Shown: piece after piece, positions 1 to 21,968 of the stretch
How the letters are laid out: each line of letters opens with the position of its first letter
How positions within the stretch are numbered: the stretch's first letter is position 1
Origin: Convolutriloba macropyga
Taxonomy: Eukaryota
NCBI RefSeq assembly: GCF_964194025.1
Contig: NC_134482.1
Coordinates: 15,562,001 to 15,626,000 of the forward strand
Direction of reading: 5' to 3'
Length of the DNA: 64,000 bases
Program-made: the position numbers and the translations under genes
Notes under the pieces: model-generated
Database searches by the model: none
What the model was told of the DNA's origin: nothing
What the model saw: only the letters and a program-made list of their open reading frames with translations

Positions 1-2300
1 GATCTATAAGATGTAAAACTGATAGAACCAACCCGTTCATATTGGGCCGTACCATCAGTATCAGTGAAAAAGAAAGATGACAGCTAAAGACTAGTTGTAG
101 ATTAAAGAAGTTTGAACTAACAAATCGAGAAATACAGTTGGCCGCTACCAAGATTAAACGAAGTTTTCGACTCTCTAGATGGAAATTGTTACTTTTCCAA
201 TATCGACTTGATATCGCGATAATCTCAAGTTGCGCTGGATGAAGAATTTTACAATGTGACAACTTTGGTTACTCCAATGGGACTCTACAGGTGGAAGAGA
301 CTGTCAAAATGTCTGGCGTCAACGCTAGGAGTTTTTCAAAAAGTAATGCAGCTTATCATGGCGGGACTCTCCTATGAAGTGGCTTTATTTTACCTGGGCA
401 ACATAATCATCTTCGGTAAATCGTTTGAGGATTGTCTCAATCGTCCAGATCTCGTATTTGGACAACTTGAAGACGCTGGTTTAAAAAAAGGCCCAAAACG
501 TAAGTTTTTCAGGAAAAATCCAATTCCTGGGACACATTGCATCAAACAATGACAAAGAAATGGATCAGGATCAGTCAGTAGAAAAAAAAGACCCCGACCA
601 AGAAAAAAGTTGAGAGCTATATTAGGGCTGGTTGGTTTTTACAGAAGATTTACACAAGGTTTTTGAAAAATAGCTGAACCGCTTTGCATGCTATCAAACG
701 AAAAAGAACGTTTTTTTTAGCAAAGAGTGAATCAGCAGTTCAACAACTAAACTAAGCACTACATAAAGCACCAATTTTGGGTTTTCCGAATGACACGGAA
801 CCTTATATGTTAACCACCGAAGCCTCTTTGTTTGGCATTGGCGCAATTGTTTCTCGAGGACAACTACGGGGTGAGCGATTTATTCCATATGCAAGCACAA
901 CGCTCAGCAAAAACCGACGAAACATGAAACAACACTGAGACAAAAACTGATTTTTTTGCGAAAGTTTGTTTCACTCAACAATTCAGAAATTATCTTCGGA
1001 AACAAACGTTTTTAATGTTACCAACCTTATGGTCCTCACATGGTTACACAGTTTTAAAGAGCAGGACGGATTATTGGCCAGATGGATAGAAAAACTTGGA
1101 GAATTTGATTTTGAAAACAAACACGGAGCTGGAAGGATAATTCCATCCTCAGACTGTCTGTAAAAATTCGCAGAGACTGAAGAAGAAGTCAAAGATTGCA
1201 ATCATTTGATCCAAATAAACATGAATGAAAGACAAAAATATCTGGTCCCTTGGTTTATGAAAATCTGCGGAACAACTAGTTGAACGTCAGAAAAAGGCAG
1301 CCGAACTTATTATACTGAGAAACTGGATTGCGCGGGAAACGCCCTCAAAAAGAAAAAGCTTGGCGGGGCCTCAAGGGTTGATTTCAGAAACTTACGAATA
1401 GAAAAACTTTATATAAGAGAAACAAAGCTTTTGACAATTTTAAGAACTTATGCCAAAAAGTTATTCAAAGATCACTTTTAAACGAAATTCTACCTTCAGT
1501 TCATGAACACTGCGGACATTTGGTATGGCTAGGACATATGATTGAGCTTGAGAACGTTCCTACAGGCCCGGGATGAGAAAAGAAGTTCACGAGTTGTAAA
1601 GCTCTTGCAAAGTATGCATTTAAGAGAAGTCTCCACACCAGAAACACATACACAGACTGACAAATTGGAAACCTGGAAACCAAGTCACCACTTTTGGCAA
1701 ATTGTCTTAGACATTGTGGGACTTTTACCCGGTTCATGTGGAAAAGAACACATTCTGTTTATTGTAGATCAGTTTTAAAAAAATGGTATGAAGCAATTCT
1801 CAAGAGCAACCTAGAAGCTTCAACGAAGCTAAGGCCTTTGTAAAAGTATGGGTCTCACAATTCGGTTGTCAGACAAATCACCAGAGTGACAAGAGCAGCA
1901 AATTTATGTCGAAGCTTTTTAAGAACATGTGTAAAGTGCTGGGAACTAACAAAAACATCAGCGTAAGCTTACCAGCTTCAACAAAACACAATGACAGAGC
2001 ATAATGATGGCACAATCAAAAGAATGTGATTGAATTTGGCAACACCTGGAGCGACTAGTTTCTGCTAGTAATAATGGCGTACAGATCATCAATTCACACT
2101 GTGACCAAGTGTAGCTCATAGACATTCGTTAGCAAATTCATTTTCTTACAATCCTTAGAGATTGTATGGTATGATTCTGGGAACATTCTGCAGACGTCTG
2201 AACTGATCAAATGCGAAACGTCACATATCAAAGAGGAGCAGGTAAACAAATGAGGACTCATCTACTCTAAAAAAAAGCATGAGTAAATACAAATACTGCA
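1..2300 (+). pseudogene. Gypsy pol pseudogene (RT, RNase H, integrase)
   Basis: RT: VKKKDDS*RLVVD, WPLPRLNEVFDSL, FSNIDL, TPMGLYRWKR, FYLGNIIIFG (decayed YLDD). RNase H: LTTEASLFGIGAI, WLHSFKEQDGLLARW. Integrase: FWQIVLDIVGLLP..ILFIVDQF. Many stops and frameshifts. Confidence 0.9.
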
Positions 2301-2599
2301 TGTACAGAGCACCATACACTGTAACTGCGCTGAAAAAAGAGGTTGGCCTGACGATGCAAAACACCTAAAAAAACCCAAATAACTCCAACGATTTTACTTT
2401 AAAAAGAATCAGACTGCCAAAACTAAGGCGGGGACATGAAGTGTTGTTACCGAAGACTTGGTGACTTTGGTTTCAGTGCTCCTTGAGAAAAATTTAACGG
2501 GATGGTTGGTGGTAAAAGCGACTCAAATTTAGTTCAAAAATAACCAAAAACAATCAAGAAAGGCGTAGATGAGAAATGAGTGAGCTAAGCCTACCCCGT

Positions 2600-3900
2600 T
2601 CAATCCAAAAGGCGAACAACAAAAAGGTAACATCATAATAAATGCTGAAATCTTCATAGGAACATTGTTCATAGAAACTACCGAAACAACTCAAGGAATT
2701 TGGTTATATTTTAAAGATGCTCTTAAACAAGAGCAAACTTTTTTTGTATCACAGAGATTCATTTGAGTTAGATTCGGTACAATATATATTCGACTTAAAT
2801 ACAAACTCAAATAAGTTTACGATGGTAACAGTAAAGAACTCGGCGACAGTAAAGATATTAAACACTGGAAACAATAGGTATTTGACCATCAAGTTAGACG
2901 GAAAATTAAAATTTAGTAGTGTAGGTAAAAAAACAAGACCAATCTTTTGACGAATTTTAACTTTTTGAATCAAACCAATGAAACTTATATTACATAGGAG
3001 ACAAACTTGGGATCAGGGAAAGTAATTTTGATCAACAGATTTTTGTGAGACTGATCTCAGGGACGCAAAGCTAGATCAACTCTTTGTGTGAGATGTTTGA
3101 GGTATGTTCAGAAATTTGGATCAGATAGAGCTTTTAAAATGCCACTTGGAAAAATGGCAGAGAGCTATGATTCTAACTTAACCGATAAATGGAAACTCAA
3201 ACAAAGTTTTAATAGATCAACAAAACGCTCTGAGGTTGCATGTGGAAATAGCCGGAGGAGTATTTTATGTCCATAAGTGCGCTAAAGTTGTTGTCCATGT
3301 CATATAAAATTTGTTTTGTACCAAGGAAATACCAGTCATGGTGTTTTCTGTTAACAGTCCAGAAGTGACAAGATACATGGACTCTATTTCTAAAGTGTTC
3401 TATAGAAATTTTACAAAACGGAATTGCAACCCCTTCTGCCCGAGCCCACATGAGAGAACACATATGGCCGACAAGTAGAACTGATTGATCAGCCCAATTG
3501 CAAGCCCAATTACAGAGTTAACGTCAATTGGTCAAGTACAGCATCAATTGAAGAGCTTTTCAATGACGATGAACTTGAACTTAGAAAGACAGCCCAAAAG
3601 AAATGGCCTTCGGGAAAAACAAAAATAGGAAAAGATTTTTTCCCGGGAAAATGAAGCTTATATGAACATGAGACTTTAGAGTACTTCAGCATGGATTTAC
3701 AATACGGGAAGCAGTGCTACGAAGTCTTAATCTTTAATTATTTTGGTAGTGAATTGAATCAAATCTGGCATGCATTTTATCAGCTGTAAAATCAATATTT
3801 GTGTCATGCGAGTTTTCCAGTCAACCGATATGATACGCAGTTGCACGAATCGTGTACAGGCACTGCAAATCATTGTTCCAATGGGGGAATTAGGAGATTT
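2600..3900 (+). pseudogene. Degenerate env-like glycoprotein ORF (chuvirus-glycoprotein/gB-like class III fusion protein remnant) inside the Gypsy element
   Basis: One frame over 3038-3449 reads DFCETDLRDAKLDQLFV*DV*GMFRNLDQIELLKCHLEKWQRAMILT*...VEIAGGVFYVHKCAKVVVHVI*NLFCTKEIPV...RYMDSISKVFYRNFTKRNCNPFCP. It sits between integrase and the PPT. Confidence 0.6.
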
Positions 3901-5176
3901 TAATATTCTCAAACAACTTTCTAGGGGAAAAAATCAGACACGAAAAAAGACCACAATTGAACTTTGTGACGGTGACACAAACATTGTAGTTTTTGAAAGC
4001 AGAAAAGGTAAAATCTGTTCCTGAAATAGCCGAAAAAAAAATTGTTACACAGGATTAATTGTATTTTATAAAACGTAGGCATGGCAGAGCCAAAAATTGC
4101 AGACAAATGCTTCCACTTACCCGAACTGTACGAAACTTATTCAATAGTCAAGCACCAGGTTTGTAGCATTGCTGGTGTGAAGTCCAGTAAAATTATCTAG
4201 AACCACTGATGCAGCCTTAGCCCCCAATGTCTTGGACAGAGCTTCAATCAGTGTGATGGAGCTGAGTGAGTTGCATGGGAAAATTGAAATGCAGTAGAGA
4301 AAATTAAACAACAGCAAAATGCTGGGATATGCTGGGGCTCGGCTCAAAGAGGAGCTTCAGTAAATAAAACTAGAAGGTCAAAGACTACACGAGCAACGTC
4401 TAGAGACATAAAGGTTACTAAAAACCGCTGGGAATCATCGGGAGTCCTGCAGGAGGCGGATTAAAATGTTGAACAGGGAGTTGGAAGAGACAAAAGCCAA
4501 GCAGAAAGGAAAACAAGGGAATGTGATGCTCAGGTAGGTGAGCGGGAGTTTGTAGCTCGGGAGCTGGAGAATGCCTAAGAAGGCATCAGAAAACCTGGAA
4601 GCAGGATGAAAACAAAACAGACGTCAAAAACGATCATCCAGAGGAGGCTGGAAGCAATAAAAATCCAAAGTTTTTTGAGTTACTCACGCTCATAATATTT
4701 TTTTCGAACTCAATCTGAAGTCTCATCAAATCATTTTTTTGTCCTTCTTTGAATCTTTAGTCCAAGGCACTTGCCTTTCTTCATCTCTTGCAAAATCAGT
4801 CACAGGTTAAGTCGTCACTCATATGACTTGGCTGTATAGGAGTAGTAATCTGATTTATTTGCTGGTAGCTGCTTATCAGATGTATGCCACCGTCTGCGAA
4901 TACCACCTTTCAGCGTCTTCATAAAATCCTCCAATTTTCAATAGACTGCAGTAATGCGGAACATTGGAAAGAATTTTTTTTTTGGAATTGAATAGGATGT
5001 AGGCAGAAAATTTTACATCGACCAAGCAGGACTGTGGCATCTACTGTTTATCATTTTTGGTTTAATTTATTATTGTCTGCACAAACTTTTCTTTTCTCCC
5101 TTTGAAATTTTGGAAATTTTGAGTTTTTTCCCATCATAGCCCTCATTATAGTATGTTTTCCATAAGTAGGGGGTAT

Positions 5177-5785
5177 TGTAGTAAACCCAAAGAAGAGAAC
5201 GTATGACATGAAAACAGACACCACCTACAAATTTCACAATAAAAACAGCAACAGAAACAGATTGTAATGAAGAGTAAACCGGATTTTAACAGAAACAAAA
5301 GGAAAAGCATCATAAAGTATGATGCATATCATCACGCATTTTGATTTTGACGGGATACGTCAAGGAGTGTTTGTTCTTGACGTGATTCGTCAAGCAGGTA
5401 AATCTGTTATCTCTTACCGTTTATCTGCGAGAATAAATATGAAAAAAACCCGAACCGATGAGAAAAAATGATAAAAATAAACCAATACAATGACCATAAG
5501 CCAATGACCATAAATACAACCTCTACTCGTAGATATAGCTGTCTTTCTCTTAATCTTAAGCAAAAAAACAACTTCATATTTACCTCTGTATCAACTCTAC
5601 CTGTAATTTTACTGTTTTATATGTATTTTTCTTCTGTAACAGTCCCTGAGTTTTTTCTAGTTCGCAATTGAAATAAAAGCTTTGACATTGAACAGTTTCC
5701 TCAGCTTAAAACCGAGAAGTAAAGTGCTTTAGAGAACCTCCAACCACAACCGCATCAGCAAAAACTGCACGGTTTTAATACTATA
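5177..5785 (+). repeat. Putative 3' LTR of the Gypsy element (~609 bp)
   Basis: Starts TGTAGTA after a PPT, ends TACTATA (imperfect inverted ends), AATAAA near 5672. The 5' LTR is not in the window, so it cannot be compared. Confidence 0.65.
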
Positions 5786-5829: not shown

Positions 5830-6168
5830 TAAACAGCAATTATTAATTTTTAAGGTTAAATCTATTGCATGTCAACAACAGAGAATTTCAAAAAGAATCA
5901 GCCAAAAAATGGGACCAAGCGATTTGAGTTATCAACTTTGGTACCACTTTTCACGGAGGTTTTCATTGAATTGCATGAGAGAATGAGCATAAAGGAGATT
6001 TGAAGTGAAAAAAATGACGTGAGAGATTTTTATTTTTCAATAAATAGTTTTTATTTGCTTATTAATTGTCAAGCAAGCAACCGTGATATTGACTTGATAT
6101 AGAAACAAACATAAGGATGTCCGCAACAATATTGCTAACTCAGCTACGACTGTGCAGATAAAAACTAC

Positions 6169-9100
6169 GGATCATTTCCGATTGTGCCCCAAGTTCAGTG
6201 GGCGCATATTATATGCAACCCCAGACGCACTTCCTTTTTTTACTCAATGATTTACTATGTAACGACACGTGATCTTTATCTAACGGCGAATAACGTAGGT
6301 TACCTCAAACTTTCAGGTTACCCAATCAATTTGGTTTTTTAGTCTAATCGTTGTGATATACTTATTAAATAGATATGCTCTGTTTTTCAACGCCTGACGC
6401 TCCCACCTGGACCTCTGGAACTGAGCATTGCCAGAAACAACCCCTCTTTGAAAAAATGTTTTGTTGATGATTTTCCTGAAAAAATTAATCGTGTTTTCAG
6501 TTAGTCAACCCTATATCAATAAAAATTTACTTCTCTAATTATTGAATATTTGTGCAATCATCCTTCGTTTTGACAATATCTATAGTTTTACTTTCTTCTC
6601 TAGTGAAGGTGTAAATTTTTCATACTATGGCAATCAGTTATTTGCTCGGATGCTTCATTACTTGATTTACAATTTTGCTCCTTACTAAACTCAGTTTTTC
6701 CTCTTCCGCAATGTCAAACGTCCTTGGATGTGATTATTTGCTCAACGGCTTTCATGATCAAAATGAAGGCAGTTATTGTAAAACCCCTCTGAGGAAAACG
6801 AGCGTTTGATGGAATGTTTCTAACTGGCTGCTCCTAAAATGTAGATATTTCAAACGCTCCGCTGTCTACACACACACCCCGGTTTTATAGCCTAATCGTT
6901 GTGATAAACCTATTAAATAGATATGCTCTGATTTTCAACGCCTGACGCTCGCACTTGGACCTCTGGAACTGAGCATTGCCAGAAACAACCCCTCTTTGAA
7001 AAATTGTTTTGTTGATGATTTTCCTGAAAAAATTAATCGTTCTTTCAGTTAGTCAACCCTATATCAATAAGAATTTACTTCTTTAACTATTGAATATTTG
7101 TGCAATCATCCTTCGTTTCGACAATATCTTTGGTTTTAATTTCTTCTCTAGAGAAGGTGTACATTTTTCATACTATGGCAATCAGTTATTTGTTCGGATG
7201 CTTCATTACTTGATTTACAATTTTGCTCCTTACTAAACAGTTTTTCCTCTACCGCAATGTCAAATGTCCTTGGATGTGATTATTTGCTCAACGGTTTTCA
7301 TGATCAAAGTGAAGGCAGTTATTGTAAAATCCCTCTAAGGAAAACGAGCGTTTGATTAAATGTTTCTAACTGGCTGCTCCTAAAATGTAGATATTTCAAA
7401 CGCTCCGCTGTCTACACACACACCCGGGTTTCAATGTCCGCGATGTATTTCAAAAGCAGCACATGATGGTTGCAACGTTCCCACCCCACCCCTGCCCTCT
7501 AGCCCCCTACGAAAAGCCAAGGCCATACAACCCTATTACCGCAATGAGAAGCGCAGGTTGTTGCTGATGATGCCAAGGATGGGACCATAGTTGCAACGCC
7601 CCCCTCATAACGTAGCGGAAGAAAACAATAAAATTTACAAAACGATCTAGCATTAACTGCCACAAAATGCCGATATGATTTTCAGAATGCATAGAAAGAT
7701 ATGTTACTGGAGCGCAAATTTCATAATACTGAACAAAATCAAAGCTGTACAAAGGATCGTTGAATGCTTTAGTGAAAATTTTAAACAGTTTGCAGAAGGG
7801 TTATCTATACGAGTTCAGTGGGCGCATATTATATGCACCCCCAGACGAACGTCCTTTTTTACACAATGATTTACTATGTAACGATACGTGATCTATATCT
7901 AACGGCGAATAATGTAGGTTACCTCAAACTTTCAGGTTACCCAATCATTTTGGTTTTATAGCCTAATCGTTGTGATAAACTTATTAAATAGATATGCTAT
8001 GATTTTCAACGCCTGACGCTCGCACCTGGACTTCTGGAACTGAGCATCGCCAGAGCCAACCCCTCTTTGAAAAATCGTTTTGTTAATGATTTTCCTGAAA
8101 AACTTAATCGACTCGGTTTTTTCAATCAAAGCAGAAATTAATAGTTTAGTTTGATTTTTTTTTAATTTCTTAATTTGTTCTGCTCGTTTTCTTTGCTTAC
8201 GAGAACATGAGCCGATTCAAAAAACAATGGATGCCAAATTGGTCTGATGGGATTATTTTGGGACGTCAGGAACAAGGTATTTGGATTCCAGAACCGTGCA
8301 ATCTATTGTTCACTTCTACAAAGGTGCCACCCTAAAAGAGCTCGTCAAACTCATTTCGGCTTTAAATTGTTATTGTTGCCGGCTTTAATGATAATCGAAG
8401 TACTATCCAAAAGTTCGCTAAAGATTGGCAGTGTCTCTTAGATATAATGTATATAAAGTTCAATCCCTCAAATGTAATTGTGCCAGAAATCAGTCTTTCA
8501 GTTAGTCAACCCTATATCAATAAGAATTTACTTCTCTAATTATTGAATATTTGTGCAATAATCCTTAGTTTCGACAATATCTATGGCTTTACTTTCTTCT
8601 CTAGACAAAGTGTACATTTTTTTCATACTATGGCAAGCAGTTCTTTGCTCGGATGCTTCATTACTTGATTTAAAATTTTGCTCCTTACTAAGCTCAGTTT
8701 TTCCTCTTCCGCAATGTCAAACGTCATTGGATGTGATTATTTGCTCAACGGCTTTCATGATCAAAGTGAAGGCAGTTATTGTAAAACCCCTCTAAGGAAA
8801 ACGAGCGTTTGATGGAATGTTTCTAAGTGGCTGCTCATAAAATGTAGATACTTCAAACGCTCCGCTGTCTTTACACCCGGGTTTCAATGTCCGCGATGTA
8901 ATTCAAAAGCAGCACATGGTGATTGCAACGTTCCCACCCCACCCCTGCCCTCTAGCCCCCTACCAAAAGCCAAGGCCATACAACCCTATTAACACAATGA
9001 GAAGCGCAGGTTGTTGCTGATGATGCCAAGGATGGACCCATAGTTGCAACGACCTACTCATAACCTAGCGGAAGAAAACAATAAATTTTACAAAACGATC

Positions 9101-12338: not shown

Positions 12339-13706
<1,368 letters not shown>

Positions 13707-20080: not shown

Positions 20081-20237
20081 TCAGTATTTCAAACTGAATT
20101 TTTAGGTCATATCTGCCCATACTTGAAAAGAGAAAATAACTTGAATCAAGAGAGCGATTTTAGTGAATTTATTGGCAAATTTGCATAAAATGATTGTTCT
20201 TTAAGCTTTGAGCTATAATTGCCAATTGCCTTTTCAG

Positions 20238-21667
20238 ATTTCGTATCGCCCATAGAGCAACACTGGAACGAAGCAGCCGCTCTTCGGGACTCAAGAACCA
20301 GATCTTATCTCCACTCATCCTCAACTAACTATGACTACGATTCGGGGACGGCTTCTCAGGTCTTGCTCCGACGACACCGAATCAGATCAAACGCTGAACG
20401 GGACAAACTGTCGTCACAGAGTAGTTCACGGCCATCATCTTTAGTCCAGGAGCTGCCAACTCGAACCAGAAGGCGAAGTCAAAATGGCACCCCGAACCCT
20501 GCTAACCTCACCCTTACATCAGTTAACCGAGATATACCGATTGTGCGAGAGAGTAGGCGACCTCAGGATGACTTTATCCGGGTTCCGGTTGCTTCAAACC
20601 CCCCAGTATGCATGGCACCGCCCGACATTTTACCAATTTACGAACAGAAACAGCTGTTCGCAGCAGCTGCGATCAATTCCAGACTTACGTCATCATATAC
20701 CAATCCTAACTCTTCGCCTCTTTTGAACTCGAGGTCGACTTTTTCTAACCCTAACCGGAGTTCAAACCTGCATGAACTAACCAGACTCGTATCAGCTCAA
20801 CAATCTCAAGGAGGTCGGCAGGTAACCCCGTCGGGCGGAGCTCACGGATCGATTGGGAACCCAATAACAAGTACTCATAGTACTTTAAGATCGAGCAGAA
20901 CCTCCTTGACTGGAGGAACCAGTGCGTCTAGCATCAATTCTCTCTTGAGCACAGTCGAACGTTCGCCATCAATATCAAGAAGAAACAGCGACAAACCAGT
21001 AAAGCGAATTGAGTGCAAACCAAATCCGGACCAAATTGATCCGACCATCTCAAATGTTAAGGATTTCAAACCGGTTGCACAAAGAAATACGCCTATAGTC
21101 GCTAGAAGAACGGCTCCAATTATATCTCGTCAGCCGAGCAATTTTCAGCAGAAAATTTCGTTGAAGTCACATCTTGCGAGTGCAGCTGGGGGGCCTCGAG
21201 AGATCTTCGAACACGGAGCCCGCGGATACAATTTCAGATCTGTGCTGTCCCCAAAACCGTATCCTGTGATCTTCGATTCGGACTCGGCGTCTACTATTTC
21301 AGACGAGTTTTACGTGCCGTTTAAAAGCGCAGGCAATTTCTACATTCAAAGTGGAGGTTCAAAATCGTCATCGCGAGCATCATCTGTTACAAAACGATTC
21401 ATAAGAAGCCAGGATGTCACAATCGGAGCGTTGAGTAATGAATGCAGTCTTGAATTTAGGATTCCCAAGTTTTATTCCAAAGAGGTCGCTGATTGGTCAA
21501 TTTCATCATCAGTCCGACAGAACAGAAAGTGTTGTTCAGTCACACGAGCACCAATTGCAGTTTGGGGTTGCAAGGTGGCCCAGCATGCGTGCGAAGGTCG
21601 GAGCGAAGAAGTCCTTTTGGAAGACGTCGATTCTATGATTGTTCCTCCAAGACGATTTTTCGCTAAG
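20238..21667 (+). CDS. Large exon of an uncharacterised Ser/Arg/Pro-rich protein
   Basis: 499-codon ORF with higher GC; TTTTCAG acceptor ends at 20237; donor AAG|GTCAGA, phase 0. Confidence 0.8.
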
Positions 21668-21968
21668 GTCAGAAAAATTCTAATTGAGATTTTGTGGTGT
21701 AAAAGGAGGCTTGTATAAATTGAATTCAGCATCTTTTTTGATATTTGGTAACTTGAGATAGAAATTTTTAAATTATAATGGGAAAATGTTTAAAAGTAAT
21801 CAATTGCGTGCATTGTAAAGTAAATCGAAAATTGTAGCTATGATAGAAATTTTTCGATAGAAAAATAACTCGTTGAATTACTAGACCGAATAGTTGAATT
21901 AATCTGGTAAGTAATAATGGTTTGCTCAATTTTGTTGAACTGATCCAAATTACATGATGAGTTTTCAG

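Follow-up and report, generated by a model that had tools for sequence, protein, structure and literature searches.

Ty3/gypsy elements that carry an env gene are the subject of a survey by Chary and Hayashi (PMC13524379), the main text of which reports 1,512 of them and describes env of the HSV/gB type as widespread across animal phyla; chuvirus-like mosquito sequences from PMC7642597, used there as baits, brought in 114 elements, and an ancient origin is argued. Type III J-proteins, among them the polyomavirus T antigens and the phage protein Rki, are thought to deliver specific substrates or to place Hsp70, according to the passages of PMC3486835 that deal with them.

We analysed 64,000 nt of Convolutriloba macropyga (assembly GCF_964194025.1, NC_134482.1, positions 15,562,001 to 15,626,000, forward strand), a stretch that we call the window. 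It holds an old gypsy copy with a gB/chuvirus-type env remnant, and young sister copies of that element elsewhere in the host genome carry a fourth open reading frame (ORF4) with a J-domain. The pairing of such an env gene with a virus-like element is already in print; the J-domain accessory gene is the part to be reported. Whereas gB-type env on Gypsy elements is known, a J-domain accessory gene on an LTR retroelement is apparently new, no prior case having appeared in the literature searched.

Results

The element in the window

The features of the element are as follows.

1 to 2110 (+), decayed pol, covering the end of RT, RNase H and the N-terminal and core parts of integrase; RT_RNaseH_2 match, E 7e-11
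2110 to 2125 (+), junction of a deletion of about 1.0 kb; Pol residues 1375-1686 (C-terminal part of integrase) and env residues 1-22 are gone
2125 to 4053 (+), decayed gB/chuvirus-type env gene, 71.7% identical in DNA to the sister's open 689-aa env
3038 to 3448 (+), frame singled out in the preliminary description, env residues 336-471; predicted central helix, then a beta-rich domain
3775 to 3833 (+), remnant of the membrane anchor (env about 589-617), 28 nt missing; hydropathy peak of the sister at 589-599
4081 to 4661 (+), decayed ORF4, of which residues 1-195 remain (barrel and coiled coil); tblastn E 2e-27
4662 to 4990 (no strand assigned), DNA in place of the sisters' J-domain and PPT; no second match among 40 scored genome matches
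4992 to 5760 (+), 71%-identical duplicate of the 5' flank and 5' LTR, LTR-like from 5178

The sequence listed above is almost certainly a decayed copy of a Ty3/gypsy family with a gB/chuvirus-type env, as regards the identity of both the element and its env. The 5' LTR, PBS, gag and protease of the element lie outside the window, its start being about 3.4 kb upstream. Its decayed pol was 78% identical in DNA to the young sisters over 4.2 kb, and its env gene contains 22 indels, 19 of them frameshifting, and many stops; being 72-78% identical to the young sisters, the copy is old. The preliminary description had recognised a glycoprotein remnant in a single frame at 3038-3449. That frame exists, at 3038-3448, with 137 codons, four stops and no indel, and it does encode glycoprotein: with X in place of each stop, it matched PF24664 (Monjiviricetes_fusion) with an E-value of 6.7e-5 and 21.5 bits, below the 27-bit cut-off, and it was 65% identical (89/136) to sister env residues 336-471 (E 8e-64), scoring 189 bits where 200 shuffles reached 25 at most. 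It includes four conserved cysteines, and the NFT sequon pointed out earlier is common to it and the sister env (residue 459). Window fragments lying between stops gave no env match. The frame had been placed correctly, but the true extent of the remnant is the larger interval 2125-4053; similarly, the hydrophobic stretch described at 3730-3900 does contain the membrane anchor, the extent of which is really about 3775-3833, with the 28-nt gap listed above.

The 3' end of the window copy is rearranged. Its ORF4 breaks off at 4661, and no J-domain match was found in the window although one was present in 5/5 sisters tested; the copy has lost the J-domain part of ORF4. The segment 4992-5760 is probably a local duplication and not a normal 3' end. 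The purine run before 5178 (at about 5165) that had been read as the PPT is probably not that of the family: it sits in this duplicate, and the sisters' PPT differs. Dating of the copy by LTR-LTR comparison was rejected because 5' flank forms part of the 3' repeat.

Just upstream of the window, a BEL/Pao remnant (Peptidase_A17, RT and integrase) adjoins the 5' end of the Gypsy element, and 3' of the element local tandem repeats with units of 0.5-1.6 kb occupy positions 6100-9000. Farther along the window there is an unbroken 455-codon frame at 12339-13706 (+), which we take to be alpha-tubulin, and a 499-codon open frame rich in serine, arginine and proline at 20219-21718 (+). From about 37300 to 64000, three head-to-tail units of 9.76 kb, about 100% identical, carry BEL/Pao-like gag-pol frames; they represent either a recent tandem duplication or an effect of the assembly.

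Sister copies

Young sisters have the layout LTR (617 bp), PBS, a single gag/pol frame, env, ORF4, PPT and LTR. Their LTR pairs were 95-100% identical in 7/7 copies, the best-matched pair reaching 99.8%, and the copies themselves were 97.8-99.6% identical over 8-10 kb, with all frames unbroken in one of the seven. A PBS-like TGG run and a PPT occurred in every one of the seven sisters, and clear 4-bp target duplications in four. Judged by such copies, the family is a recently mobile one. The carrier had been assigned to Gypsy rather than BEL/Pao, and this was borne out by the domain order in gag/pol (CCHC at residues 290/306, PR at 357, RT at 791, RH at 938, IN at 1171-1236), by the Pfam matches of sister pol (PF17919, PF17917, PF00665 and PF22938), and by the absence from these of Peptidase_A17, a domain that the neighbouring Pao element does match.

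When the 1.18-Gb host genome was searched at the DNA level, 40 of 348 candidates were scored, and the other places were 74-79% identical. The protein search with a sister env fragment yielded 150 scored matches out of 1506 candidates, including several open frames of 688-689 codons. Elsewhere in the host genome, a tandem array of partial element copies extends over about 45 kb.

Predicted class III features of the env protein

The sister env of 689 residues matched PF24664 with an E-value of 2e-14, and all 17 aligned envs matched the same family. Its AlphaFold model, a monomer, had a moderate pLDDT of 63. As had been anticipated from the sequence, the model gave class III matches: with Foldseek, every PDB row listed was herpesvirus gB (best E 5.5e-12), and the BFVD matches were chu-, qin- and xinmo-like glycoproteins, also rhabdo-like ones (best E 2e-25, at 12-16% identity). 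In VIA-align, ranks 1-9 were gB, rhabdovirus G or thogotovirus GP at modest Z-scores of 5.2-6.9. Global TM-scores were low, about 0.2, so the model does not fix domain orientation. The env profile found nothing among PDB sequences (best E 0.85), and the class III call therefore rests on Pfam and on folds; from these we predict for the family env the fold of a class III fusion protein of the herpes gB/chuvirus type, in agreement with the preliminary description.

Cysteines C370, C416 and C429 were invariant in 17/17 env rows, and C465 nearly so; the family env has seven ectodomain cysteines, and it lacks the domain I-II cysteines of two other env families of the host genome. The presence of a signal peptide and a membrane domain had been raised earlier as a point to check in intact copies. 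The C-terminal anchor is clear, lying near residues 589-617 by sister hydropathy and in the model; at the other end, the candidate signal segment, helix 10-27, is only weakly hydrophobic.

Seven gB-env families and the history of env

At least seven gB-env Gypsy families, which we named by env length, were found in the host genome: E689 (the window family), E677, E701, E684, E678, F898 and F769. Their RT-RNase H regions were 28-79% identical to that of the E689 family. Trees of integrase, env and RT were built from the host-genome families and one Pao outgroup only. The integrase tree contained the groups ((E689,E701),E677) with support of 99/98, (E684,E678) with 86/84 and (F898,F769) with 100/100; the env tree gave the same groups where resolved, leaving E677 open, and the RT tree left the clade of E689, E701 and E677 unresolved.

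It had been suggested that env in this element was an independent capture by a Gypsy lineage. Such env is already published on Gypsy across animal phyla in the main text of PMC13524379, and the env and integrase trees of the seven families are congruent wherever they are resolved; this agreement fits long co-descent better than fresh capture. A fairly recent acquisition from a chuvirus-like virus is thus improbable, though the best BFVD matches of the env model were chu-, qin- and xinmo-like, with E-values far below those of herpes gB, and the E689-clade env is only 19-20% identical to those of F898 and F769, so that two captures are conceivable; an independent capture at an older date is conceivable too. 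Against it, besides the trees and the published breadth of gB-type env on Gypsy, the viral proteins are 12-16% identical to it, and none of their families stands out as the nearest. There is practically no chance that an unrelated insertion into a single Gypsy copy accounts for the glycoprotein segment: nothing was found in favour of this, and env was colinear with pol and LTR in 8/8 sister regions of one set and 7/7 of another, which shows in these regions the linkage of env to pol that had been raised as a point to check.

After env, E684, E678, F898 and F769 have an ORF of 274-611 residues without J-domain or HPD, coiled-coil-like by weak Pfam matches; no homology of these fourth ORFs to the ORF4 barrel was detected. 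As J-bearing ORF4 occurs in E689, E677 and E701 (the 99/98 group) and in none of the other four families, the J-domain marks one integrase clade. Some of the four J-less families have near-identical LTRs, and in F898 an interval of about 3.8 kb without any frame of at least 200 codons separates pol from env.

ORF4 and its J-domain

The fourth ORF of the sisters was overlooked in the preliminary description, lying just outside the range considered there. Its first codon lies 22 nt beyond the env stop, in a different frame, and it encodes 280 residues with no hydrophobic segment. Its J-domain matched PF00226 over positions 1-63 of 63 (E 8e-14, 52 bits against a cut-off of 27.8). The ORF4 model, with a pLDDT of 90, shows a four-strand barrel of SH3/Tudor fold at residues 9-42, a single helix at 59-197 and the J-domain at 203-266; the last is a complete four-helix J-domain with HPD, accompanied by unrelated targeting parts and by neither a G/F-rich nor a zinc-finger region. 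The fold match of the J-domain had a Z-score of 10.0 (rmsd 1.9, 69 residues aligned), and its PDB sequence matches were cellular DnaJ A/B/C, with no sequence link to T antigen appearing. For the barrel, the fold matches were PWWP and Tudor domains with Z-scores of 7.6-8.2 over about 50 aligned residues, near the level of common arrangements, and the best of them was a PWWP domain bound to single-stranded DNA. Comparison of the barrel with the C-terminal SH3 domain of integrase gave an HHalign probability of 2.5% and a pairwise P of 0.019, and PF22938, the Gypsy integrase C-terminal domain, matched one of three barrels with E 0.13; as evidence that the barrel is an integrase duplicate, neither signal is significant.

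The genome search with ORF4 gave 140 scored matches out of 1743 candidates, many in open frames of 283 codons. The arrangement of barrel, coil and J-domain is common to E689, E677 and E701, the E677 protein being 27% identical to that of E689. The HPD motif was intact in 49 of the 60 copies covering it ungapped and in 11/12 divergent element J-domains. A scan of 1.84 billion representatives recovered ORF4 homologues that are about 30-39% identical and share its layout; HPD was kept at about 30% identity, and coil length varied widely. Among scored host-genome places, the best full-length matches to the ORF4 homologues P0154 and P0160 and the env homologue P0119 were 38%, 30-34% and 34% identical, low values from which we infer that the three are likely to come from other hosts. 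An env cluster and an ORF4 cluster occurred on source sequences of equal size (9213 and 3326 bases), which suggests that the two genes may be linked there. ORF4 relatives, sought with P0157, were not found in viral_contigs or metagenome_contigs, and no longer or fused forms occurred among 7994 scored candidates, which is weak evidence. In the J-domain tree the 12 element domains grouped together with 80% local support, two unlabelled fragments falling inside the group, and no donor emerged. Contigs from four read runs covered 26-30 of 30 bins over env and ORF4 in short pieces and were not counted as support.

Selection was assessed on copies chosen by env or ORF4 searches: 93 loci, less 17 duplicates and the one used as reference, left 75 distinct copies, and CpG-type changes were removed. 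Private variants in the 75 copies had pN/pS of 1.0-1.5, as expected for decay after insertion. For variants shared by at least 25% of copies, pN/pS was 0.24-0.30 in env, 0.15-0.23 in ORF4 and lowest, 0.10-0.11, in the J-domain, where there were few changes (16, of which 12 were synonymous and four non-synonymous). Sixty of the 70 copies that covered the end of env ran on through the J region. These results showed that ORF4 is under purifying selection.

Discussion

Proposed role of ORF4

We propose a family organised as LTR, gag/pol, env, ORF4 and LTR, with a class III env and with an ORF4 that likely recruits host Hsp70 to the nucleoprotein complexes of the element; taken as a whole, this explanation seems to us probable. 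Hsp70 systems remodel nucleoprotein complexes. In such a scheme env would enable particles to fuse with other cells, by analogy with Drosophila errantiviruses. Lacking a hydrophobic segment, ORF4 would be a type III J-protein at work in the cytosol or nucleus. Its SH3-fold barrel may bind nucleic acid or a nucleic-acid-bound client, as its fold likeness hints, and the helix of about 140 residues may both oligomerise and provide spacing; Hsp70, triggered by the J-domain, would then assemble or take apart a particle or a cDNA-integrase complex. From its sequence, ORF4 is very probably a working Hsp70 co-chaperone; that its client is the element's own complex is a more tentative proposal, to which we give slightly less than an even chance. 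The families E684, E678, F898 and F769 do without the J-domain, and it is thus not required for the enveloped lifestyle.

The barrel could instead find chromatin or the small-RNA machinery, with the J-domain steering or tying up Hsp70 so that repression is relieved. The barrel's best folds, PWWP and Tudor domains, would suit such a counter-silencing factor; J-proteins and Hsp70 have roles in Argonaute loading and heterochromatin, as general background, and phage Rki interferes with host DnaK and is no generic co-chaperone, as the pages on it in PMC3486835 describe. The sole same-fold Pfam hint for the barrel is, however, the Gypsy integrase C-terminal domain mentioned above, and we regard counter-silencing as rather unlikely. 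A nucleic-acid-directed adaptor is the reading that we favour over it, itself tentatively, because of the PWWP match with single-stranded DNA and the two weak integrase C-terminal signals. A J-domain that does not engage Hsp70, being a passenger or no more than a folded end piece of a coiled-coil structural protein, would accord with the variable coil length of the homologues and with the related families that manage without it; this is nevertheless quite unlikely, since HPD is kept in homologues of about 30% identity and shared pN/pS is lowest in the J region.

Read more broadly, the data may describe an enveloped Gypsy clade with its own Hsp70 co-chaperone, which would be to retroelements what the T-antigen J-domain is to polyomaviruses, built from a barrel (possibly a copy of the integrase end), a coil and a J-domain captured once, and spread over families diverged by about 70% and over more than one host; we think this evenly balanced between true and false. 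The env taken by itself adds one more member to a described group; the fourth gene is of greater interest. J-domain proteins that redirect Hsp70 are known from DNA viruses and phages, a list that a retroelement case would extend. ORF4 is small, soluble and conserved, and with an HPD control it makes an Hsp70-dependent step of a retroelement, or of host defence, directly testable. gB-type errantiviruses can also be complex, with accessory genes 3' of env that three-ORF surveys overlook.

Comparison with known systems

DnaJ, J-domain and chaperone are absent from the main text of PMC13524379, and DnaJ also from those of its supplements that were examined; a motif search of its supplements gave nothing, the element sequences being deposited elsewhere. 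DnaJ, chaperone and ORF4 have no mention in PMC5408684, nor has DnaJ in PMC6338049 or PMC12440569, and its lone mention in PMC9004415 is the name of a host gene. A J-domain protein encoded by a retroelement was not found in the literature searched, a scope that left out Repbase and most subscription journals, and earlier notice is possible.

The closest relatives in structure are the HSV/gB-type 'ancient errantiviruses' as the main text of PMC13524379 presents them: like these, the present family has the order LTR-gag-pol-env, a class III env with a C-terminal anchor, many near-identical copies, and an env that follows pol in trees. Unlike those described there, it has between env and PPT a fourth ORF that encodes a J-domain, and its env has seven ectodomain cysteines. 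It shares with Anakin, the mosquito BEL/Pao element of PMC7642597 with a chuvirus-derived glycoprotein, a chuvirus-type glycoprotein inside an LTR retroelement; in contrast to Anakin, the carrier belongs to Ty3/gypsy, and no particular chuvirus is close to its env (12-16% identity). The LTR elements of bdelloid rotifers, in the relevant part of PMC5408684, resemble it in having a captured host-type gene in the 3' region, namely their additional ORFs other than env, whereas here the extra gene comes on top of env. With the SV40 and polyomavirus T antigens and Rki of phage RB43, so far as PMC3486835 portrays them in the part concerned, ORF4 has in common a lone HPD J-domain joined to unrelated targeting parts, the lack of a G/F or zinc region, and a mobile genome. 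It differs from them in that its carrier is an LTR retroelement and that its J-domain is C-terminal, behind a barrel and a long coil.
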